Of a stretch of 64,000 nt of DNA, positions 1 through 51,014 are shown in pieces. The stretch is from Patescibacteria group bacterium (lineage in GTDB: Bacteria; Patescibacteriota; Minisyncoccia; 2-02-FULL-40-12). The notes under the pieces are model-generated. The model ran no database searches. It saw nothing but the letters and a program-made list of their open reading frames with translations, and had not been told where the DNA came from. The position numbers and the translations under genes are program-made. The stretch covers positions 24,215 through 88,214 of the forward strand of contig JBBTXZ010000005.1 in assembly GCA_038062015.1 (NCBI GenBank), in the 5' to 3' direction. Each line of letters starts with the position of its first letter. Positions within the stretch are counted from its first letter, which is position 1.

Positions 1-369
1 AGCAAACTTTGAAGCCGTTTTGAGCGCGGCTCCTAAATTTACCCTCCCGGGCATCCTGTCGGATATTCGTAAAGAGCTGGAAGGTGCTACTTCCCCTATG
101 GGATAAGACTTTGGACGTGGACCCAGGTTTTTTGAGGCAATTTCCCGTTTGACCCGACGCGCGTTTTTCTGATAAGCGATTAGTGATTCTCTCGTTGTCA
201 GCCAACGGCCGTTGGCTTCACGAAGAGCATCAATTCTCTGCTGGCGGCAAAGCCGGCTGATATGATCAATTTCATACCCAAACTCTCGAGCTAACTCGCT
301 TATCGGAATGTACTCGGTTTTGTTTTGGTTGTTGCCGTAAAAACCCGACAAATCATAACATCCAAGTCT
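1..369 (-). CDS. Partial CDS (5' portion; continues beyond the window start): excisionase/HTH_17-like DNA-binding protein, GC-rich
   Basis: Open minus-strand frame with no stops from ~369 to position 1. It encodes ...ISELAREFGYEIDHISRLCRQQRIDALREANGRWLTTRESLIAYQ..., which fits the excisionase-type HTH pattern (S..ELA...G.S...I.RL...G.I.A.K.G..W.I....L..Y). No in-frame ATG near the 5' end, so the start is uncertain (TTG possible). Local GC is well above the genome background. Confidence 0.4.
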
Positions 370-433
370 TTACCAAATACCCGACATCACGCTGAGCGGA
401 TATTCGTCGTGCTCAGCGCGACATTCCGACATA
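265..433. repeat. 169-bp perfect direct repeat, copy 1 (contains hairpin cgctgagcg-N13-cgctcagcg)
   Basis: Identical to 829..997 by direct reading. Contains the inverted repeat cacgctgagcggatattcgtcgtgctcagcgcg. Confidence 0.9.
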
Positions 434-828
434 TCCAATTTTTAAAGTATATGTCGTGTGTATATAAATTATCTTATATACCAAGATAGCGCGTCAATAG
501 GTTTTTGTTGATAAGTTTATTAAAATCCTTACCCGTGTCAAATCTATTAGGATTTCGCTTTGGCTGACATTTTTTGGAGGTACGAATAGCTTATCTCAAG
601 TTTTTTGATTTTTTTGACTCGATTTTTGATTTCAAAAGGCCTTAAGCCGTTTTTCATCAATTTTTTACTTTTTTGATAGTTTATTAATGACTTTCTATGA
701 TACTTTATATATGTTTTAGCTATTTATAATACTTTTATTTTAAGATTTTTCATGATTTATTCGTTTAATTTTTAAATTTAGTTTTAATAGTAAAAATAAC
801 GAAAACTGCGGCGCCGATAATATCCATT

Positions 829-997
829 CTTATACCCAAACTCTCGAGCTAACTCGCTTATCGGAATGTACTCGGTTTTGTTTTGGTTGTTGCCGTAAAA
901 ACCCGACAAATCATAACATCCAAGTCTTTACCAAATACCCGACATCACGCTGAGCGGATATTCGTCGTGCTCAGCGCGACATTCCGACATATAGAGC
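829..997. repeat. 169-bp perfect direct repeat, copy 2
   Basis: Identical to 265..433. Immediately preceded by ggcgccgataatatccatt, which duplicates vanZ-like coding sequence at 1037..1055. Separated from copy 1 by ~395 bp of AT-rich DNA. Confidence 0.9.
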
Positions 998-1389
998 TAA
1001 AAAGAGGAATTGTCGTATAAAGTCATGAAAGTAATGGCGCCGATAATATCCATTGCTAAGTCATTGATAGTGTCATTAAGATTGCCCATACAGCAGATGA
1101 TTCCATGTGTATTATAAAGATAACTACTTAAGAAGGCGGTAGCTATATATTCTGAAAATTCCCAGATAACGCCGATAAAGACCGTTGCCCCTGTAATTAT
1201 GAGTAGTTTCTTAATTTTTCGGCCTTTCATATACTCTTTTAAATAGTTATAGAAAAACATAGCCACAAAAAAACCGCCTAAAAAGTGGAGAATTATGTCG
1301 AAATACAGAATTCGATAGAACCTGAAACCGAGGCCGAAAACCATATCAATCAGGAAAATCAGGATTAAAAACAGAATTGCGGTTCTCAT
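997..1389 (-). CDS. VanZ-like family membrane protein
   Basis: ORF 997..1518(-) trimmed to the internal Met (MRTAILFLIL...), because the upstream part overlaps the ileS start. Multi-pass TM protein with VanZ-like hydrophobic pattern. Confidence 0.55.
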   Translation of the reverse strand: MRTAILFLILIFLIDMVFGLGFRFYRILYFDIILHFLGGFFVAMFFYNYLKEYMKGRKIKKLLIITGATVFIGVIWEFSEYIATAFLSSYLYNTHGIICCMGNLNDTINDLAMDIIGAITFMTLYDNSSF

Positions 1390-1414
1390 TTTATTAGTGT
1401 AATAATCAATATAT

Positions 1415-4400
1415 ATGAAGCCTGAATTCAGTTTACCGAGAACAGAAGAAGAAATCCAGAAGTTTTGGGAGGCCAACAAGGTTTTTGAAAAAACTCTCGA
1501 AAACCGCAAGCGAGGCAAAAAATTTGTTTTTTATGAAGGACCGCCCACGGCCAACGGCCTGCCTCACATCGGTCATTTTTTGACCCGGGCGTTTAAGGAT
1601 TTGTTCGTTCGCTATAAAACTATGCGCGGTTTTTTTGTCCCCCGCCGGGCCGGCTGGGATACTCATGGCCTGCCAGTTGAAATAGAAGTTGAAAAAGAGC
1701 TCGGATTGAAATCAAAAAAAGAAATTGAAAAATACGGCATTGCCAAGTTCAATAAAAAAGCAAGGGAATCGGTCTGGCGCTATAAAGGTGAATGGGAGAA
1801 ATTTTCAAAGCGAATCGGATTCTGGCTGGATTTTGACAACCCTTATATCACCTATGCCAATGATTATATTGAAACGCTTTGGCATATAGTTAAGCAGTTT
1901 GATAAGAAAAAATTCCTGTATCAAGGCCATAAAGTTCTGCCCTGGTGCCCGCGCTGCGGTACTACCCTTTCAAGCCATGAAGTCGCTTTAGGATATGAAA
2001 GTATAACCGAGGATTCGGTTTATGTGAAGTTTAAAGTTACTGGCTATGAAAGATCACCGATCTATTTACTTGCTTGGACAACTACGCCTTGGACATTGCC
2101 CGGCAATGTTGCTTTGGCCGTTGGTAAAGATATAACTTATGTTAAGGGTTTTGTGCCGAATAAAGAGGAAATAGAATTTTATATCTTTGCAAAAGACCAA
2201 CTTCCTAAAATTAATGAAATTTTAGGTGAGGATTTGAATATAGTTACAGAATTCCCGGGAGGCGAGCTGGTCGGTTGGGAATACGAGCCCTTATTTGAAG
2301 TCAAAAAACTAAAATCCAATAAATCGTATAAAATTTATCCGGCTGATTTTGTGAATACCGAAGAAGGCGCCGGCGTAGTCCATACCGCGGTGATGTATGG
2401 AGAAGATGATTATCAATTAGGGGAAAAAGTCGGCCTGCCTAAACATCATACAGTAGATAAAGAAGGAAAATTCACTGAAGACGTTCCTGAATTTGCCGGC
2501 AGATTCGTTAAAGATGCCGAAAAAGACGTCATTGCTTACTTAAAAAACAAAAATCTTTTATTTAAAGTTGAACCTTATACTCATGATTATCCTTTTTGTT
2601 GGAGATGCAAAACGCCACTACTCTATTATGCGACCGATTCTTGGTTCGTAAAAACCACAGCCGTAAAAAAACAATTAATCGCCAACAACAAAAAAATAAA
2701 CTGGATTCCGCCCTACATTAAAGAGGGTCGTTTCGGCCAGTGGCTTAAAGAAGTCAAAGACTGGGCTTTTTCGCGAGACAGATATTGGGGAACGCCTCTG
2801 CCAATTTGGCATTGCCAAATTGGCAGAAGTAAAAAGTTAAAAGTTAAAAGTAAAAACTCAGATAATAATGGCTGCGGGAATTATTTAGTTATCGGATCAT
2901 TGGAAGAATTAGAGAAGCACCGCTATCAAAAACCAAACAGATACCATATCATCCGCCATGCCGAAAGCACAAAAAATATTGAGGGCCGGGAAATAAACAG
3001 CGTCAAACTGGAAAGTGATAAATATGATCTGACCGAAAAAGGGATCAACCAGGCCAGAAAATTAGCCAAAGATTTGAAAAACGAAAAAATAGACTTGATT
3101 TTCAGTTCCCCATTTTTAAGAGCTGAAAGAACCGCTGGAATAATAGCTGAAGAGTTGGGGCTTAAAGAAAAAGTTGACCACCGGCTTAAAGAAATAGACC
3201 ACGGAAGCGTCTGTGAAGGCAAGGATTATTTTGCCTGCATACCGAAAGGCCAATACCCTAACAAAGATTTTAACACTAAGTTCGGGCCGGATGGAGAGAG
3301 TCGGAATGACGTCAGAAAAAGAGTTTTTGATTTTATCAAAGAAACCGAAAGCAAATACGAAGATAAAAATATTTTAATCGTTAGCCACGGCGATCCTTTG
3401 TGGTTGATGGAGGGAATTTCAAAAAATCTTGGCGAAGAAGAATTATTTTCGGCGAAAAAGAACCAGATTTTGGGCATAAAAGATAATGCATTTAAGCTCA
3501 TTAAATTTGGAGAAAAAAGAGTTTTGGTTTTCGGCAATTATCCGAGGGATGAATTTGGGAATCCGGATCTTCACCGGCCGTATATAGATGAAGTTTTACT
3601 TAAATGCCCAAATTGTGGCGGCGGGACGCTAAGCGTCCCTGATAGCCACGCTCAGCGTGGCGAAATGAAACGGGTTCCGGAGGTAATTGATGTCTGGTTT
3701 GATTCGGGAGCAATGCCGTTTGCAAGTCGGCCTGACTTCCCGGCTGATTTTATAACCGAAGGCGTAGATCAGACCCGGGGCTGGTTCTACACTCTTTTGG
3801 CTGTTTCAACTCTTTTAGGCAAGAGTAATCCTTACAAAAATGTTATTTCTTTGGGTCATGTTTTGGATAAAGACGGGAAAAAGATGTCCAAGTCGCTTGG
3901 CAACGTGATTAAGCCTGATTATGTTATTGATAAATTCGGAGCTGATATTTCAAGATGGTGGTTTTATGGGGTTAATCAGGCCGGCGAATCAAAAAGTTTT
4001 CGAGAGGAAGAATTGAAAGAAATAACTAACGGCTTTGTCAGGGTGATTATAAATTCTTTGAGGTTTTGGCAATTATATAAAGGAAGTTCTAAAGCTAAAA
4101 TAAATTTCCACGATCTTAAAAATAAAAACTCTTTGAACTTATTAGACAGATGGTTATTATCAAAATGGAACAGTTTAGTTGATTTGGTTACAAAATCTTT
4201 GGATAAATACGACGCTACAACAGCAAGCAGAGAAATTGAAAAATTCGTGATTGAAGATTTATCCAATTGGTGGATTAGAAGAAGCCGGGATAAATTCCAA
4301 GTGCAACAAGGCGCTTCTCAGGAAGATTTACTAAGATTTGTCCTTTTGGAATTGTCGAAGTTAATTGCTCCGTTTGCGCCGTTTTTGGCGGAGTATCTGT

Positions 4401-5026
4401 ATAAGGAACTGCATCATGGTGTTAAGTTAGACGTGGCGAGTATTCATTTTCACAATTGGCCCAAAGCCGACAAAAAGCTGATTGATGAAAAGTTGGAAAA
4501 AGAAATGGAATTAGTGAGAGAGATTGTAAGTCTGGGCTTGGCGGCAAGGAAAGACGCGGGAATTAAGGTGAGGCAACCGCTGGCTTCGCTTGAAGTTTCA
4601 AAGTTTCAAAGTTTCAAAGTTTCAGAAGAGTTATTGAATCTAATAAAAGAGGAAGTGAATGTGAAAGACATAGAATTTAAAAGTTTAAAGTTTAAAGAAA
4701 CTGACAAAGAAGAACTATCGGTTGTTTTGGACACTGAAATTTCGCCGGCTTTAAGAGCCGGGGGTTGGGTTAGAGAATTTATAAGAATAATCCAGGATGC
4801 CCGAAAGGATGTCGGTTATGAATATGATCAAAAAGTCAGGGCTTACTGGTTTACTGAAGACAAATCTTTGGCCGAAGCCATAAAAAGAGAAGAAAAATTC
4901 ATAGTTCAAAAAACGGTTTTGAAAGAACTTCGCCAGTCTAACCACGACCCGAAGTTTGCCTATGATGTTGAAAAAGTCTGGGAGTTGGAACCGGGCCGAA
5001 AAATTTGGCTGGGATTGAAAAAGTGA
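1415..5026 (+). CDS. ileS: Isoleucyl-tRNA synthetase (type 2, eukaryote-like) carrying an internal ~200-aa histidine-phosphatase-like domain insertion
   Basis: HIGH motif (PHIGH), KMSKS, WFDSG and the CPNCGG zinc knuckle. 1203 aa, longer than usual because of the inserted domain (see findings). Confidence 0.95.
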   Translation: MKPEFSLPRTEEEIQKFWEANKVFEKTLENRKRGKKFVFYEGPPTANGLPHIGHFLTRAFKDLFVRYKTMRGFFVPRRAGWDTHGLPVEIEVEKELGLKSKKEIEKYGIAKFNKKARESVWRYKGEWEKFSKRIGFWLDFDNPYITYANDYIETLWHIVKQFDKKKFLYQGHKVLPWCPRCGTTLSSHEVALGYESITEDSVYVKFKVTGYERSPIYLLAWTTTPWTLPGNVALAVGKDITYVKGFVPNKEEIEFYIFAKDQLPKINEILGEDLNIVTEFPGGELVGWEYEPLFEVKKLKSNKSYKIYPADFVNTEEGAGVVHTAVMYGEDDYQLGEKVGLPKHHTVDKEGKFTEDVPEFAGRFVKDAEKDVIAYLKNKNLLFKVEPYTHDYPFCWRCKTPLLYYATDSWFVKTTAVKKQLIANNKKINWIPPYIKEGRFGQWLKEVKDWAFSRDRYWGTPLPIWHCQIGRSKKLKVKSKNSDNNGCGNYLVIGSLEELEKHRYQKPNRYHIIRHAESTKNIEGREINSVKLESDKYDLTEKGINQARKLAKDLKNEKIDLIFSSPFLRAERTAGIIAEELGLKEKVDHRLKEIDHGSVCEGKDYFACIPKGQYPNKDFNTKFGPDGESRNDVRKRVFDFIKETESKYEDKNILIVSHGDPLWLMEGISKNLGEEELFSAKKNQILGIKDNAFKLIKFGEKRVLVFGNYPRDEFGNPDLHRPYIDEVLLKCPNCGGGTLSVPDSHAQRGEMKRVPEVIDVWFDSGAMPFASRPDFPADFITEGVDQTRGWFYTLLAVSTLLGKSNPYKNVISLGHVLDKDGKKMSKSLGNVIKPDYVIDKFGADISRWWFYGVNQAGESKSFREEELKEITNGFVRVIINSLRFWQLYKGSSKAKINFHDLKNKNSLNLLDRWLLSKWNSLVDLVTKSLDKYDATTASREIEKFVIEDLSNWWIRRSRDKFQVQQGASQEDLLRFVLLELSKLIAPFAPFLAEYLYKELHHGVKLDVASIHFHNWPKADKKLIDEKLEKEMELVREIVSLGLAARKDAGIKVRQPLASLEVSKFQSFKVSEELLNLIKEEVNVKDIEFKSLKFKETDKEELSVVLDTEISPALRAGGWVREFIRIIQDARKDVGYEYDQKVRAYWFTEDKSLAEAIKREEKFIVQKTVLKELRQSNHDPKFAYDVEKVWELEPGRKIWLGLKK

Positions 5027-5040
5027 TAGGATAGAGTTAA

Positions 5041-6738
5041 ATGATCCGTCGAATAATAATCGGTTTATTCATTCTTTTGATTTTCGGCACGGCTATTTTT
5101 TTGTTGTACCGGAGCGGATTCCGCGAAGGCAATGTCATTTTTAAAATAGAAGCTCCGGACCAAGTCTCATCCGGAGAAGAAATTGAATACCGGCTCATCA
5201 TTGAAAACAGAAACAATTTTGATTTGAATAACACCAAGCTTTCGTTGTCTTATCCCGGCGGAACGATTTGGTTCAATAAAGAAGGCCAGCCGTCCAATTC
5301 GGCGATCAATAATATTGATTCAGCCGGGTTTCAAAGACGCGAGAGAAAAGAATTTATTTTAAGGGCAATTTTGACCGGCGAAAAAGGCGAGATTAAAAAA
5401 ATAAAGGCCGAATTCACTTATAGCCCGAGCGGCATCAAGCCGGTTTTTCAAAAAAGCGCCGAAGCCGGAACAACCATTTCGAAAGTTTCCATCCCTCTAA
5501 CTTTGAGCGGGCCGCCCAATGTCCTGCCCGGCCAACTGGTTCAGATCTCCCTTGATTTAAGAAATGAAACCGAAGATGACTTTAAGGATTTAGAAGTAGT
5601 TTTTTCCTATCCCGACGGCTTCATTTTCAAAAAAGCTTCGTTTTTGCCGAACCAGAGCAATAACGTATTTAATTTGTCTTTGCTTAAATCAGGGGAAGGC
5701 GTGAGGATTACTATTGAAGGCAATGTTTCCGGTTTTGAAAAAGAAAGCAAAAGATTTATCGCCGCATTAAAAAGAAAAATAGACGGGAAATTCTTTGATT
5801 TTCAAAAAACCCAGGTTCTGCTTACTGTTTCGTCGCCTCTTTTAGCCCTTGATGTTTTAGTGAATGATTCAAAAGATTATATCGCTAAAGCCGGAGACAA
5901 TTTAAAATATAAGATTATATTTTCAAATAATTCCGACAATAACTTTTCAGCTTTGGAATTGTCCGTTAAGCTTGAAGGCCAGATGTTTGACTTGGTTAGT
6001 TTGAAGACCAGCGGCTTTTTTGATCAAAACTCCAGGACAATTTTATGGAACGCGGCCGCCGAGCCGGCACTGGCGAATTTAAGCCCCAATCAAAGGGGAG
6101 AAGTTTCTTTTGATATTAATCTCAAGCCGGATTTTCCAAAGGCTTTCGGCAAAAATTATTCTTTGAAGGCGGGTTCTTCAATCCAGACTTCGTCGGTGCC
6201 TCCGGATTTTAATTTGGATAAGATTACGGCTTTAGCCGAATTGATTACCAAAGTTAAATCAAAGACTGATTTCATCTCCAAAGCTTTTTATAATGATTTA
6301 GTGTTTTCAAACACGGGTCCGGTGCCGCCGCAAGTTGGCCAAAAGACCACTTATACGATACATTGGAAGATAGTCAACGAGGGTAATGACCTGACCAATG
6401 TCAGAATCGTTTCGTCGCTTTTACCAGGCATCAGTTGGGAGAATAAATTTAAAATTATGCCGATCCAGTCAGATTTGAATTATAGTCTTTCAACCGGACA
6501 GATTTCCTGGAGTGTTCCGACTGTGCCAGCCGGAACCGGAATTGTTTCCCCGGTTTTTGAAGCGGTTTTTCAGGTTGGTGTAACGCCAAGCGTGAATCAA
6601 TCCGGCCAGAATTTGGGGATTTTAAAAGAGGTGGTTTTTGAAGCGGTTGATAACTTCACCAAAGAGAAAATTAATTTAAGTCAGCCCGGGATTAATACCC
6701 AGTTCGGGGTGGATTCTCCGGGGACGGTGCAGCCATAA
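5041..6738 (+). CDS. Hypothetical membrane-anchored, beta-rich extracytoplasmic protein
   Basis: N-terminal TM helix (IIIGLFILLIFGTAIFLLY), then a long S/T/N-rich region with repetitive beta-strand-like segments. No recognisable catalytic motif. Confidence 0.5.
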   Translation: MIRRIIIGLFILLIFGTAIFLLYRSGFREGNVIFKIEAPDQVSSGEEIEYRLIIENRNNFDLNNTKLSLSYPGGTIWFNKEGQPSNSAINNIDSAGFQRRERKEFILRAILTGEKGEIKKIKAEFTYSPSGIKPVFQKSAEAGTTISKVSIPLTLSGPPNVLPGQLVQISLDLRNETEDDFKDLEVVFSYPDGFIFKKASFLPNQSNNVFNLSLLKSGEGVRITIEGNVSGFEKESKRFIAALKRKIDGKFFDFQKTQVLLTVSSPLLALDVLVNDSKDYIAKAGDNLKYKIIFSNNSDNNFSALELSVKLEGQMFDLVSLKTSGFFDQNSRTILWNAAAEPALANLSPNQRGEVSFDINLKPDFPKAFGKNYSLKAGSSIQTSSVPPDFNLDKITALAELITKVKSKTDFISKAFYNDLVFSNTGPVPPQVGQKTTYTIHWKIVNEGNDLTNVRIVSSLLPGISWENKFKIMPIQSDLNYSLSTGQISWSVPTVPAGTGIVSPVFEAVFQVGVTPSVNQSGQNLGILKEVVFEAVDNFTKEKINLSQPGINTQFGVDSPGTVQP

Positions 6739-6787
6739 GGTAGAATTTAGGACTTAGAAATTAGAACTTAGAACCAGAAATTAAGAA

Positions 6788-8098
6788 ATGGAAGATAAGT
6801 TAAGCAAAATTGTTTCACTGGCCAAGCGCCGGGGTTTTATTTTCCCCGGTTCGGAGATTTACGGAGGGTTAGCCAACAGCTGGGACTATGGGCATGTTGG
6901 CAATGAACTGTTCAACAATCTAGCCAGTCTTTGGTGGAGTAAATTCGTTACCGAAAGAGACGACATGGTTGGAGTCAGAGGGACGGTCATAATGAATCCC
7001 AAAGTCTGGGAAGCTTCGGGCCATTTGCAGAGTTTCACTGACCCTCTCATCGAATGCAAAATTTGCCACAAAAGAATAAGGGCCGATAAAGAGGAAGAAA
7101 AACTGACCCACGAAGAATCGCACAACAACAAGAAAGAGAATCCGATATGGACCGAACCGAAAAATTTCAACCTTCTTTTCAAGACGTTTATCGGTTCGGT
7201 TGAAGACCAAAAGTCGGCCGTTTATTTAAGAGGAGAACTGGCCCAGACGATGTTTACGGATTTTAAGACGGTTTTAGACACCAATCGGCTCAAGCTGCCC
7301 TTTGGCATTGCCCAGATTGGCAAAGCTTTCAGAAATGAAATTACCACCGGTAATTTCATCTTCAGAACTAAAGAGTTTACGATAGCCGAGCTCGAATACT
7401 TTGTGAAGCCCGGCGAGGAAAATAAATATTTCAGGGAATGGCAGAATTTTATGGAAGAATTTCTGACCAACGAAATAGGCATCAAAAAAGAAAATCTAAA
7501 TTTATACGAACATCCCAAAGAGTCGCTGGCCCATTATTCAAAAGGGACGATTGATTTCCAGTATAAATTTCCGTGGGGCTGGGATGAACTGTGGGGGCTT
7601 GCTTCGAGAACTGATTACGATTTGAAAAATCACGAGAATTTTTCGGGAGAAAATCTTAAATATAAAGATCCGGAAACAGGAGATGAATTCTGGCCCTATG
7701 TGGTCGAACCTACCAGCGGATTAGACAGACTAATGCTGGCAGTATTGCTGGAATCATATAGTGAAGATGAAGACAGGGTGGTATTGAAATTTAAGCCCAA
7801 ACTGGCGCCGTATAAAGTTGGCATATTTCCATTACTAGCTAATAAGCCGGATTTGGTTAAGAAAGCGCGGGCGATTTACGAAGGTCTGAAAAAAGATTTT
7901 GAGGTTGTTTGGGACGACCGAGGCAATATCGGAAAAAGGTATTACTCGCAGGACGAAATCGGAACGGCTTGGTGCGTGACAATTGACCATCAGACCTTGG
8001 AAGACGATACGGTCACGGTCCGCGACCGTGACACGATGAAACAAGGAAGAATTAAGATTGAAGAGTTAAATAATTATTTTGAAGAACGGCTAAAATAG
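6788..8098 (+). CDS. glyQS: Glycyl-tRNA synthetase (dimeric class II type)
   Basis: N-terminus RGFIFPGSEIYGG...WDYG and overall alpha2-type GlyRS sequence pattern. Confidence 0.9.
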   Translation: MEDKLSKIVSLAKRRGFIFPGSEIYGGLANSWDYGHVGNELFNNLASLWWSKFVTERDDMVGVRGTVIMNPKVWEASGHLQSFTDPLIECKICHKRIRADKEEEKLTHEESHNNKKENPIWTEPKNFNLLFKTFIGSVEDQKSAVYLRGELAQTMFTDFKTVLDTNRLKLPFGIAQIGKAFRNEITTGNFIFRTKEFTIAELEYFVKPGEENKYFREWQNFMEEFLTNEIGIKKENLNLYEHPKESLAHYSKGTIDFQYKFPWGWDELWGLASRTDYDLKNHENFSGENLKYKDPETGDEFWPYVVEPTSGLDRLMLAVLLESYSEDEDRVVLKFKPKLAPYKVGIFPLLANKPDLVKKARAIYEGLKKDFEVVWDDRGNIGKRYYSQDEIGTAWCVTIDHQTLEDDTVTVRDRDTMKQGRIKIEELNNYFEERLK

Positions 8099-20010: not shown

Positions 20011-20094
20011 TGCCGAGAGAGGGAGTCGAACCCTCAAGCCCTTGCGGACGGCTGATCTTGAGTCAGCTGCGGTTGCCAATTTCGCCACCTCGGC
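20011..20094 (-). tRNA. tRNA-Leu (anticodon CAA), type II with long variable arm; CCA not encoded
   Basis: Manual fold: acceptor GCCGAGG/UCUCGGC, anticodon stem GCUGA/UCAGC with loop CUCAAGA, long variable arm, T-arm GAGGG-UUCGACU-CCCUC. Confidence 0.8.
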
Positions 20095-20139
20095 TTATAT
20101 CTATTGTATCATTTTTTTCGCCGTTTTACAATTATAATA

Positions 20140-20904
20140 ATGGCCAAAGTAATCGGCATAGTTAACACTAAAGGCGGGAGCGGAAAAAGTACTACAAGTA
20201 TAAATTTGGGAGTTTATATGGCGGCTTTCGGTAAGCACGTTCTCCTCGTTGATTTGGATCCCCAGGCCAATGCTTCGGGTGGTTTGGGAATAAAACTGGA
20301 AAAAGACCAATACAATATTTATCATACCCTTGTGGCTGATGCAGAGCCCGGGGCCCTTATTAAAAAAACATCTATTTTTAATCTAGATATTCTGCCGTCT
20401 TCTGAAAGTCTGGCCGGCGCCAATATAGAACTTGTGAGTTTTAAAAACCGCGAGTTCCAGCTTAAAAAAGTTTTAGCTAAAGTTAAAAACGATTATGATT
20501 TTATTTTAATTGATTGCCTGCCTTCGGTCGGCATTTTGAACGTCAACGCCTTGTCTGCTTCGGACTATATTTTGATTCCGGTCCAGTCCGAGCATTTCGC
20601 TTTAGCCGGGCTTGATCAGCTTTTATCGGTTGTCGATTTGGTTAAAAAGTATTTGAATCCGGATTTGAGGATTCTGGGGGCGGTAGTGACAATGTTTGAT
20701 AAAAGAAACCAGCTGGATAGAAGTATTTTAAACCAAGTCCATAAAAATTTCCCGGGTCATGTTTTTAATGCCGTGATTCCGCGACAAGTCAGCCTTGCCG
20801 AATCTCCGAGCTTCGGGAAAAGCATTTTACAGCACGACCCTTATTCGAAAGGGGCTAGGTCTTATAGAGAGCTGGCGATCGAAGTAATGGATAAAGTTAA
20901 ATGA
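20140..20904 (+). CDS. parA: ParA/Soj family chromosome-partitioning ATPase
   Basis: Deviant Walker A KGGSGKST. ATG at 20140 (MAKVIGIVNTKGG). Confidence 0.9.
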   Translation: MAKVIGIVNTKGGSGKSTTSINLGVYMAAFGKHVLLVDLDPQANASGGLGIKLEKDQYNIYHTLVADAEPGALIKKTSIFNLDILPSSESLAGANIELVSFKNREFQLKKVLAKVKNDYDFILIDCLPSVGILNVNALSASDYILIPVQSEHFALAGLDQLLSVVDLVKKYLNPDLRILGAVVTMFDKRNQLDRSILNQVHKNFPGHVFNAVIPRQVSLAESPSFGKSILQHDPYSKGARSYRELAIEVMDKVK

Positions 20905-20905
20905 A

Positions 20906-21253
20906 ATGAAAAAAATAAAGGGCAGAGGGCTTCAGGCTCTCATTCCGATAAAACCCAGAACCAAATCCAAAAGAAAAAAGGAAAATGTTTATTATGTTGA
21001 GATAAGAAAAATCAGGCTTACCCCGGAACAATTTAAGGAAGAAGTCAATAAAAAAGTTTTAAAAGATTTAACCGAGTCAATCAAGAAATACGGAGTGATT
21101 CAGCCGCTCGCCCTGGTCAAAGTTGAAAAAAGAAAAAAACATGGGATTAATGTTTATTATAAGTTGCTTGAAGGTCGAAAAAGATTTTTAGCGGCTAAAG
21201 AGGCCGGCCTAAGAGTAGTCCCAGCAAAGATAAAGAAAAATGACCAAGTCTAA
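20906..21253 (+). CDS. ParB N-terminal-domain-only protein (truncated ParB-like, 115 aa, no HTH)
   Basis: RGLQALIP motif, GVIQPLALV segment, and LEGRKRFLAAKEAGL (ParB box II-like). Confidence 0.6.
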   Translation: MKKIKGRGLQALIPIKPRTKSKRKKENVYYVEIRKIRLTPEQFKEEVNKKVLKDLTESIKKYGVIQPLALVKVEKRKKHGINVYYKLLEGRKRFLAAKEAGLRVVPAKIKKNDQV

Positions 21254-22709
21254 AATTTTCCTGTTTTTGATGCTGGCGTTTATTTTGGGAGTCGGGAGCG
21301 GCTCCTTTTTTGATATATCTCAAGAGGTTTTTTTGGTTATTGCTATTATTGCCGTTTCTTTGGTGGCTGTTTTTTATCGTCAGGGTTCTAAAACTTTGAG
21401 TTTCCCGGTTGCTTTTAGCGCTTTTTTGATTCTAGCTTTTTCAGCCGGGGTTTTAAGATTTGACGTTTCCGAATCTATAAACAAAGTTTTAACCAGTTTT
21501 AACGATACAAATGTAAAAGTTGAATTGCGGGGATATATTAACGATGAACCGCAAAGATTAATTGATAAGCAGCGATTGACGCTTCAGGTTAAAGAAATTC
21601 GAGTGCCGGATTATGTTGACCCCGTTAGAGGCAGAGGCGCGCTGCGAGCCCTCGCGGCCTCTAACGGGGCGGTTTTTACCGATGAGAAGATTTTGACCAC
21701 CGTGAATTTATATCCGGAGTTTCAATACGGCGATTTGATTTCAATTGTAGGCATCCTCCAAAGTCCGAAAAATTTTGATGATTTCGATTACATTAATTAC
21801 TTGGCGAAAGATGGCATTTTTTCTTTGGTTTATTATCCGAAAATTTCTGAGATTTCTAAAGATGCCTTCTTCCGGCCTAAAGAAGTTTCTATTTTCGAAA
21901 ATTTAAAAATCGGCTTATTTAAGAATATTTTCAGGATTAAAAAATCTTTTGAAGAATCAATTGAAAGAGTTATCGCCGAGCCCAATGCCGCTTTGATTAA
22001 CGGGATTCTGCTCGGTTCGCGGGAGAATATTCCCCAAGACTTGAAAGAAGCTTTTAATAAAACCGGGACGACCCACATTTTAGCCATCTCCGGCTATAAT
22101 ATTACCATCGTCGGCCTTTATATTTCTTCATTGTTTATGTTTTTTATGCGGCGGCAAAAGGCTTTTTGGTTTACGGTTTTAGGCATAGTTATATTTACAA
22201 TTTTAACCGGCGCTTCAGCTTCGGTTATTCGGGCGGCGATTATGGGTATTTTGGTTTTGTTGGCCTATCGGGAAGGCCGATTCCACAACATGACCAACTC
22301 AATTGTTTTTGCCGGAGTAATTATGATTATCTTGAATCCGAAAGTTTTGAGATTTGATATTGGATTTCAGCTTTCTTTTCTAGCCACACTGGGGCTTATC
22401 TATCTTGCCCCTTTTTTAAGCGAGAAATTAAAGAGAGTGCCGGAATTCTGGAATTTCAGAGAAAATTTTATTGCCACCCTCTCCGCCCAAATAATGGTCT
22501 TGCCGGTAATTTTATATAACTTCGGCAGTTTTTCTTTGGTTTCTCTGCCGGCTAATGTATTGATTCTGCCGATTGTGCCGATAACAATGTTTTTCGGTTT
22601 TCTGGCCGGAGTTTCAGGATTGATTTGGCTGCGGCTTGGCGAAGCCATCGGTCTGATTGCCTGGCTTTTTTCCGAATATGAAATTTTAATCGTGAAGATT
22701 TTTTCTTGA
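21240..22709 (+). CDS. comEC: ComEC/Rec2 family competence channel protein (DUF4131 + competence domain)
   Basis: Polytopic membrane protein with the GTTHILAISGYNITIV competence-domain motif. Confidence 0.8.
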   Translation: MTKSKIFLFLMLAFILGVGSGSFFDISQEVFLVIAIIAVSLVAVFYRQGSKTLSFPVAFSAFLILAFSAGVLRFDVSESINKVLTSFNDTNVKVELRGYINDEPQRLIDKQRLTLQVKEIRVPDYVDPVRGRGALRALAASNGAVFTDEKILTTVNLYPEFQYGDLISIVGILQSPKNFDDFDYINYLAKDGIFSLVYYPKISEISKDAFFRPKEVSIFENLKIGLFKNIFRIKKSFEESIERVIAEPNAALINGILLGSRENIPQDLKEAFNKTGTTHILAISGYNITIVGLYISSLFMFFMRRQKAFWFTVLGIVIFTILTGASASVIRAAIMGILVLLAYREGRFHNMTNSIVFAGVIMIILNPKVLRFDIGFQLSFLATLGLIYLAPFLSEKLKRVPEFWNFRENFIATLSAQIMVLPVILYNFGSFSLVSLPANVLILPIVPITMFFGFLAGVSGLIWLRLGEAIGLIAWLFSEYEILIVKIFS

Positions 22710-25084: not shown

Positions 25085-25091
25085 TTTTAGT

Positions 25092-50580: not shown

Positions 50581-50589
50581 TGTTCCTTG

Positions 50590-50965
50590 GTAAATCTATA
50601 AGCCGAATTCTGTATTTGTGTAGTCATTTATCTGGCCCATCGATTACTTTCAGGGTCAAGCGGCACTCCCTAAACTACATAGAGTCCAGGGTACGGCCTT
50701 GCACCCGGGTAAGGATTTAGCGGACCGATATGTTGCCATACCAGTACTCGTTTCACCCCGATGCTTTAAACCCATCGCATCGGACTAAGCTTAATTTGAT
50801 AAAATCAAATCTTTGGGTTTGCCTTCTTTGGAGTCGCCTCCTTGGACGTCTCTTGTCGCACCTCTATCCTTTCGGACGGCGGGCGTTACCCGCTACCATT
50901 TTAACTACTCATTTTTAAATAAGTACGTGGGTGTTCGGACTTTCCTCTCTCTGTTAAAATATATA
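50590..50965 (-). ncRNA. rnpB: RNase P RNA (bacterial type)
   Basis: Minus strand contains a P3 hairpin followed by GAGGAAAGUCCGAAC (P4 5' strand), GGGUAACGCC, a GAAAGG...GGUGCGACAAGAGAC region resembling GAAAGGGUGCGGUAAGAGCGCACC, and ACAGAAUUCGGCUUAUAG (P4 3' strand, cf. ACAGAACCCGGCUUAUCGG). The + strand ORFs here are spurious. Confidence 0.65.
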
Positions 50966-51014
50966 ACAGAGAGTGACTACCCGATTTGCCAAAGAACTAT
51001 TATATTATAGCAAA

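Follow-up and report, generated by a model that had tools for sequence, protein, structure and literature searches.

The long direct repeat at the start of the window (the whole 64,000-nt stretch of DNA analysed here) is a recent local copy of the leader and the first 26 codons of a giant gene, and the locus, where an intergenic region of a groundwater Patescibacteria genome is decaying, bears an ordinary rearrangement scar. We consider it likely that this scar arose by illegitimate, microhomology-guided recombination or by template switching in the fast-decaying intergenic region between a DUF2238 gene and the giant gene. DNA upstream of the window was taken from the ENA contig Hain_H51_01um_R2_65 (99.6 kb; assembly ERZ1292627), which was found by an exact match of the IleRS protein, which equals the window from its position 6956 with 0 mismatches and which originates from Hainich groundwater well H51 (0.1 µm fraction).

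Extent and content of the repeated segment

The repeat is exact over 161 bp. Positions 274-434 (R1) and 832-992 (R2) are identical at 161/161 positions, at an offset of 558, and 161 bp is also the longest exact run at that offset; a repeat finder extended the match to 168 nt at 98% identity. The 161-bp match between R1 and R2 cannot be chance. The preliminary description of this DNA had reported perfect repeats of 169 bp at 265..433 and 829..997: a long perfect repeat is indeed present, with the length and coordinates corrected here. It had also suggested looking for the repeat elsewhere, and in a BLAST search of 71 kb, made up of the window and 7 kb upstream of it, R1 and R2 were the only copies. 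Equally, no exact match to a 26-nt repeat probe was found in GTDB genome contigs or JGI metagenome contigs. The features of the region are listed in Table 1.

Table 1 Features at the start of the window and their coordinates.
Feature	Position	Strand	Content
Giant ORF, first 117 codons	1..351	-	TTG start at 351; leaves the window upstream
Repeat copy R1	274..434	-	3' 83 nt of the leader (434->352), TTG start (351) and codons 1-26 (351->274) of the giant gene
Lineage-specific 37-nt insertion in the leader	382..424	-	Hairpin core CGCTGAGC-N13-GCTCAGCG at 390-418
AT-rich spacer	435..831	-	397 bp; 26% GC vs 40% in the window
Distal palindrome arm	449..456		Palindrome CGACATAT/ATATGTCG; partner arm 427-434; loop 14 nt
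Promoter-like site of the giant gene	468..497	-	TTGACG-18-GATAAT; outside the repeat
Decayed HTH_28/HTH_23 gene remnant	556..717	-	aa 53-122 only; tblastn of the L005 protein, E 4e-17
Orphan DUF2238 3'-end fragment	765..828	-	19-nt block V1 (810-828) and tail encoding MDIIGAAVFVIFTIKTKFKN, then stop
Chimeric 41-aa ORF (probable rearrangement by-product)	784..909	-	Giant-gene codons 1-26 and 15 out-of-frame codons across V1
Filler	829..831		CTT (AAG on the gene strand); separates R2 from the DUF2238 fragment
Repeat copy R2	832..992	-	Begins 4 nt past the DUF2238 stop codon (alignments A3, A4)
Segment e	993..1035	-	Current DUF2238 3' end …ITFMTLYDNSSF, stop at 997-999, and CTCT
DUF2238/YjdF-family membrane protein gene	997..1389	-	Complete, 130 aa; includes V2 at 1036-1054
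Isoleucyl-tRNA synthetase (IleRS)	1415..5026	+	Inserted His_Phos_1 domain; divergent from DUF2238

Copy 1 had been described as overlapping the 5' part of a minus-strand ORF that continues off the window, and this holds: the TTG start of the giant ORF lies within R1 and the ORF runs upstream from it. Read in the gene sense, the first 8 nt of the repeat, ATATGTCG, are the proximal arm of a conserved palindrome (the outermost 8 nt of R1, 427-434), and the other arm (449-456) lies outside the repeat. R2 has neither the promoter nor this distal arm.

R1 and R2 carry the same 37-nt insertion in the leader, which in R2 lies at 940-982 (core 948-976). Its placement is ambiguous to the base, owing to a flanking ATGTCG direct repeat, and it is predicted to form a GC-rich stem of 9-11 bp. 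The insertion was found in none of the seven relatives in alignments A3 and A4, and nowhere in the window besides R1 and R2. Because both copies hold an insertion that is foreign to all of these relatives, the split between R1 and R2 is very recent.

A 19-nt block, GGCGCCGATAATATCCATT, is likewise present twice, at 810-828 (V1) and 1036-1054 (V2). This block had been reported as a 19-bp fragment of a VanZ-like gene, fused to copy 2 and found again at 1037..1055; the duplicate stands, its position is one base off and three bases separate the block from copy 2. The gene in question (997-1389, minus strand) matches DUF2238/YjdF only, with no VanZ profile match: DUF2238 is the sole Pfam match of the window protein (E 2.9e-4), and PF09997 was precomputed for 59 of 60 homologues. 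The DUF2238 protein is identical to NCBI MEK7537083.1, and in NCBI both it and the IleRS are the same as the proteins of 'MAG: Patescibacteria group bacterium', whose contig has the locus tags AAB584_01420/01425 (MEK7537083.1 and MEK7537084.1). Past the 19-nt block the two DUF2238 ends differ, in contrast to the identical R1 and R2. The complete gene ends …YDNSSF and a stop codon, followed by CTCT and then R2, an end of the type seen in the related loci L011 and L005, and segment e matches the …RDNSSF gene end of the closest relatives.

The intergenic region in related genomes

Related loci (L002 and L004-L012) were gathered through DUF2238 homologues, one giant-gene homologue and a conserved-leader pattern; the pattern added L008, L009 and L010 only, and had no match in viral contigs. 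L008 and L010 come from the same well as the window's contig. The order IleRS (with its inserted His_Phos domain)-DUF2238-giant gene is found in all of these loci, and IleRS is a conserved housekeeping neighbour that is syntenic in the relatives. In more distant relatives DUF2238 is followed by ArgRS in place of the giant gene, which marks the giant gene as an addition of this clade. The phosphatase domain inserted in IleRS is a side observation in its own right.

In L005, L007, L008, L011 and L012 the DUF2238 gene ends …RDNSSF and a stop codon, followed by CT-ATATTTGTCGG and a promoter. Next comes, in L005, L007, L008 and L012, an intact HTH_28/HTH_23 gene of 111-125 aa (Pfam HTH_28 1.5e-13 for the L005 gene) and then the promoter and leader of the giant gene; the L011 contig stops about 80 nt past the DUF2238 stop codon. 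In L009 and L010 the 5' third of the small HTH_28 gene is gone. In L006 the 19-nt block of the DUF2238 gene leads directly into a K-rich tail, and the small gene comes next in decayed form. Collinearity between L006 and the window starts at V1 (828), takes in the spacer and R1, and covers 1.7 kb of the giant gene (76% identity). The orphan DUF2238 fragment of the window is orthologous to the functional gene end in L006 (cf. P0008 and homologues at greater distance). The locus thereby illustrates intergenic decay in co-occurring Patescibacteria populations, with four deletion/rearrangement states of one small HTH_28 gene. A second copy of the repeat was found in none of the eight relatives with the region, L006 included.

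By sequence comparison, the spacer is native intergenic region and not foreign DNA: it aligns from end to end with its counterpart in L006, and its parts are a promoter, a pseudogene remnant and the orphan end of a gene. Its description as ~395 bp of very AT-rich DNA between the copies was accurate to within two bases. BLAST found no second copy of the spacer in the 71 kb. All relatives share the giant gene's promoter-like site (A4 columns ~711-745; 85-95% identity), and leader and promoter are better conserved than the adjoining coding DNA (85-96% vs 74-91%). The unusual conservation of the giant-gene leader is of note in itself. L012 has the same palindrome as the window, and L002 has CCGATAA/TTATCGG at the equivalent place. 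Neither an intrinsic terminator nor, with TRF, a tandem array was found in the region. Similarly, Rfam returned nothing in 1-2500; a sub-threshold tmRNA match inside IleRS was taken as chance.

Over the DUF2238 gene the window is 91% identical to L009, 90% to L010 and 88% to L006, and over the repeat it is 96% identical to L006 and 91% to L010. Region by region, these identities give no clear mosaic and no clear donor signal. The K-rich orphan tail was first taken as the ancestral DUF2238 end, but the closest relatives carry the …RDNSSF end, and the change may have gone either way. Segment e (43 nt) was rejected as a deletion remnant of the spacer, to which it has no similarity (score 14 vs a shuffle mean of 15.3).

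Junctions and proposed origin of the second copy

The junctions of R2 sit at short homologies, namely the palindrome arm ATATGTCGG and AATGGATATTATC vs AATTGATCATATC. The 5' boundary of the repeat coincides with the palindrome arm and an ATAT(T)GTCGG motif, and the sequence shared by the window and L011/L005 continues through ATAT(T)GTCGG and then diverges. Since the motif is present both after the DUF2238 stop codon in L011/L005 and at the palindrome arm, the 5' breakpoint was placed at ATAT(T)GTCGG. At the 3' breakpoint, the sequence that follows R1 (AATTGATCATATCAGCCGG) and the 19-nt block (AATGGATATTATCGGCGCC) are identical at 12 of 19 positions (P ~0.0009, ~0.008 after 9 offsets), a microhomology that is only moderately significant. 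Three untemplated bases (829-831) stand at the junction of R2 with the DUF2238 fragment. Short-homology junctions together with filler point to illegitimate recombination or template switching, not to site-specific recombination. R2 and the 43-nt gene end lie between the complete DUF2238 gene and the leftover DUF2238 end.

In the event that we propose, a repair or replication strand would have switched away from the DUF2238 end at the ATAT(T)GTCGG motif and copied 161 nt, starting at the identical motif at the downstream palindrome arm. It would then have rejoined at the conserved AATGGATATTATC block of a DUF2238 gene, which resembles AATTGATCATATC (giant-gene codons 27-31), leaving three filler bases behind. 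The event probably joined two alleles, because the two DUF2238 ends of the window (the L011-type end and the L006-type orphan) occur separately in relatives. Such a joining of alleles could have taken place by homology-facilitated illegitimate recombination after DNA uptake; a ComEC is encoded in the window at 21240-22706. A donor allele from another lineage would be expected to bring a diverged repeat copy and the copies are identical, so that an extra step is needed: under the two-allele model R2 would have to have been copied from the resident R1, or gene conversion would have followed later. Alternatively, an older complex event may have been followed by gene conversion that kept the repeats identical (concerted evolution). 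The order of events cannot be reconstructed from the region identities, which do not decide between the two-allele and the older-event route.

MMBIR/FoSTeS-type events are microhomology-mediated and leave template-switch/duplication scars. The present locus is like them in that a short nearby segment was copied, with junctions at 8-13-nt imperfect homologies, a few untemplated bases and no recombinase or element genes. It differs in that the mechanism is deduced from the junctions only, the units are unequal and one junction joins the gene ends of two allele types. With unequal units and gene ends of two types joined, one intragenomic switch does not account for all of the features.

Homology-facilitated illegitimate recombination combines one homologous with one illegitimate crossover and is known in Acinetobacter, S. 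pneumoniae and Pseudomonas stutzeri, and from E. coli conjugation (PMC3240628). The likeness here consists of a continuous homologous DUF2238/IleRS side, an illegitimate microhomology junction on the other side, extra DNA, ComEC and relatives in the same well. In contrast to such events, the added copy is identical to the resident copy rather than diverged, and no donor was found. If reads confirmed two joined alleles, this uncultivated lineage with ComEC would show a natural trace of illegitimate recombination; the homology-facilitated form is not known from Patescibacteria.

The tandem duplication scar of the preliminary description comes close to this evidence as far as a duplication scar is concerned, and is set aside as a simple tandem duplication: the units are unequal (558 vs 224 bp), the inner segments (375 vs 43 nt) differ and have no similarity, and TRF finds nothing. 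A transposable element with a target-site duplication was rejected too. The 19-nt blocks flank 207 nt of purely local sequence, and of the HTH_28 (transposase-N-terminal-like) gene only a truncated remnant is left; not even the intact versions in relatives have a catalytic domain.

The giant gene and its N-terminal winged helix

The giant ORF extends over 2435 codons without a stop to the end of the contig (7306->2), and the protein is longer than 2435 aa. It comprises, in this order, an N-terminal domain, a linker, a hydrophobic segment (aa ~118-134), long Gly/Thr/Ser/Ala-rich repeats and an intein (Intein_splicing 6.7e-16, aa 1433-1660). The giant gene encodes a surface protein, and the hydrophobic segment, just past the window edge, is read as a putative transmembrane helix. 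The giant gene upstream has a GC content of 42-50%, above the ~40% of the remaining window.

The N-terminal domain (aa ~14-75) is a MerR/Xis-like winged HTH with the topology β-α-α-β-β-α (AF2 pLDDT ~90 for aa 11-70). Its best Foldseek neighbours are RacA, BldC, the Xis of mycobacteriophage Pukovnik and MerR-family regulators, with a TM-score normalised to the target of 0.70-0.79 against BldC and Pukovnik Xis and of 0.5-0.57 against RacA. The window protein reaches 17.9 bits with Pfam HTH_17 (PF12728), against a gathering threshold of 27, and 6 of 8 orthologues have a sub-threshold match. A profile search of 1.84 billion representatives returned 2854 relatives of the domain, against one homologue from a word-index search; many contain the domain twice in ~320 aa, several are 1200-4300 aa long, and some reach HTH_17 at 37-47 bits. 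The same profile gave nothing useful against PDB sequences. The domain shares its topology with the winged HTH of RacA, BldC and the MerR family, and differs from these proteins in that a hydrophobic segment and then over 2300 aa of repeats, including an intein, follow it. As a separate observation, a winged-HTH module is widespread at the N-terminus of giant membrane proteins.

What had been called a textbook excisionase-type HTH is thus correct as to the fold, which is MerR/Xis-like, and wrong as to the excisionase. An excisionase is a small stand-alone winged-HTH protein beside an integrase, whereas this domain stands at the N-terminal end of a protein that exceeds 2435 aa.

The palindrome CGACATAT-N14-ATATGTCG and the three WTGTCGG motifs of the leader might conceivably be operator sites for the giant protein's own cytoplasmic winged helix, which would make it a membrane-tethered autoregulator fused to a giant surface protein; we regard this as improbable. 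L002, a distant relative, differs in both the motif (TATCGG) and the recognition helix. Were the autoregulator to exist, the duplicated leader, whose hairpin loop contains a further inverted motif, would provide it with another set of sites behind DUF2238.

Alternative explanations for the repeat

The preliminary description had favoured an integrated element whose edge is marked by an att-like duplication and whose excisionase is the HTH gene; this is very improbable. The locus resembles the attL/attR sites of a prophage or integrative element with Xis in that the repeats are direct and the adjoining ORF starts with a winged helix of the Xis/MerR-type fold; the higher GC content of the upstream gene and its restriction to one clade, with ArgRS in its place in more distant relatives, would also suit an element. 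Unlike such sites, the repeats are 161 bp long (long for an att core) and enclose 397 bp with no intact gene, and the HTH belongs to a giant membrane protein with an intein. The description had pointed upstream for integrase, capsid or conjugation genes, and the 7.3 kb upstream are one giant ORF; no integrase or other element gene was found there or between the copies, in a screen that covered these two stretches and, in part, the other ORFs of the window. Nor is there a tRNA gene within 19 kb (the nearest are at 20011 and 25090) or a third repeat copy in the 71 kb. Gene order is syntenic in the close relatives, orthologous sequence for the spacer and for each flank is present in L006, L005, L007, L010 and L012, and no similarity was found to phages or plasmids (blastn of 1-1400) or to viral contigs (leader pattern). 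A replication origin in the AT-rich spacer, also raised at that stage, is extremely improbable. It would fit the 26% GC of the spacer, the switch of gene orientation near 1400 and the parA/parB genes some 19 kb away, which are confirmed as ParA and a ParB_N protein at 20.1-21.3 kb. However, the spacer content is accounted for by promoter and pseudogene, and the earlier remark that no clear DnaA-box cluster was seen proved right: the spacer has a single near-consensus box (8/9 match, 506-514), and the 20 boxes of the whole window, with 14.1 expected, are at chance level. The GC skew, by which the origin was to be recognised, is positive on the plus strand from 7 kb upstream through the window, with a local dip only, no minimum and no switch between the two sides. 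A prophage, an integrative element or an origin at this place of the contig can thus be struck off as a false lead.

An assembly or population artefact is unlikely but keeps some weight: the contig might string together two alleles, one with the long spacer and one in which DUF2238 is directly followed by the leader, or the copy number of the 558-bp unit might be wrong. Hainich samples were assembled one by one with metaSPAdes v3.13, and the contig comes from such a single-sample assembly (PMC8672522). Relatives have each of the two arrangements as a single allele or allele type, and the well is home to related populations. The 161-bp repeat exceeds the assembler's k-mers, the default maximum k of metaSPAdes being 55, and is about one read length. 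Against an artefact, the R2-AAG-V1 junction (829-831) is present in neither single allele, and a de Bruijn assembler would need reads containing it. The contig name gives a coverage of 27x, and the same IleRS is found on three contigs and the 89-aa DUF2238 product on three, from different records in which the neighbouring genes mostly encode identical proteins, a likeness by proteins only. Population heterogeneity or misassembly can be excluded only by read mapping. Supposing the duplication to be real, a function for it is distinctly unlikely, whether the second leader couples or insulates the expression of DUF2238 and the giant gene, or the direct repeats permit deletion of the promoter as an on-to-off switch. 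R2 does place three further WTGTCGG motifs, an extra hairpin and a translation start behind DUF2238; the leader, with its conserved palindrome and repeated motifs, is under the stronger conservation given above, and recombination between R1 and R2 would delete the promoter. But the second copy is present in 0 of 8 relatives with the region, the identity of the copies leaves no time for selection, a direct-repeat deletion is irreversible, and the chimeric ORF ends out of frame after 15 codons.

For a rearrangement scar, which remains our preferred reading, the functional consequence is probably nil or slightly harmful, with a promoter-less copy of the leader and a 41-aa chimeric ORF behind DUF2238. 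The duplication is of little importance in itself, and its by-products are perhaps more useful than the repeat.

Conservation of the giant-gene leader

The region upstream of the giant minus-strand gene, comprising its promoter and leader, has a counterpart in L005-L012 and L002 and is 85-96% conserved, versus 74-91% for the flanking coding DNA. Besides the palindrome CGACATAT-N14-ATATGTCG it contains WTGTCGG three times, in one case overlapping the TTG start codon. In L002, a distant relative, the corresponding place shows CCGATAA-N18-TTATCGG and, judging by its sequence, CTATCGGG; the motif therefore appears to co-vary. The whole window has 36 occurrences of WTGTCGG, where dinucleotide shuffles lead one to expect 10.9; none of 100 shuffled sequences had that many. 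Only six of the 36 fall inside the two repeat copies, and this excess may be an effect of codon usage.

Both repeat copies carry a lineage-specific 37-nt insertion, which was found nowhere else in the window. It is bordered by a direct repeat of ATGTCG, and its loop (ACGACGAATATCC) looks like the GGATATGTCG motif in inverted orientation.

Coordinates of the features analysed in the window and in related loci (L numbers; L001 is ENA contig Hain_H51_01um_R2_65).
Feature	Position	Strand	Remark
Giant ORF	L001 2-7306, continuing window 1-351	-	>2435 aa
Giant-gene promoter and leader	window 352-545	-	counterpart region in L005-L012 and L002
37-nt insertion	window 382-424 and 940-982		GC-rich hairpin
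Small HTH gene	L005 615-992; L007 869-1204; L012 ~6462-6840; L008		111-125 aa
Small HTH gene remnants	window 556-717; L006; L010; L009
Gap between DUF2238 (1389, -) and IleRS (1415, +) start codons	window 1390-1414		25 bp
IleRS	window 1415-5026	+	histidine-phosphatase domain inserted
ParA, ParB_N-only protein, ComEC	window 20104-22706	+
RNase P RNA, bacterial class A	window 50583-50992	-	113 bits

The giant ORF and the adjacent small HTH gene

The product of the giant ORF begins with a MerR/Xis-like winged HTH, followed by a hydrophobic segment, read from the sequence as a putative transmembrane helix, and then by repeats rich in Gly, Thr, Ser and Ala. An intein is also present at residues ~1401-1662 (Intein_splicing, 6.7e-16). 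The L001 contig ends within the repeats. The L012 orthologue additionally contains Laminin_G_3 and Peptidase_S74 domains.

Between DUF2238 and the giant gene lies a small gene whose product is similar to the N-terminal HTH found in IS481-type transposases and has no catalytic domain. Some relatives have the gene intact; in others it has decayed through differing deletions. Its final ~25 codons are well conserved, even in the broken copies.

IleRS and other genes

The isoleucyl-tRNA synthetase (IleRS) carries a complete His_Phos_1 domain inserted at residues 511-665 (Pfam, 5e-32). All relatives for which enough of the IleRS gene is available have the same insertion, distant ones with a different downstream gene among them. 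The start codons of IleRS and the divergent DUF2238 gene are so close that there is scarcely space for two promoters, and their spacing is equally tight in relatives.

The 64 kb yielded just two tRNA genes, one for Leu-CAA (position 20011) and one for Pro-GGG (position 25090). The gene for ParA (266 aa) precedes that for a very short ParB_N-only protein (115 aa), after which lies the ComEC gene; the next one encodes a metallo-beta-lactamase-fold protein.
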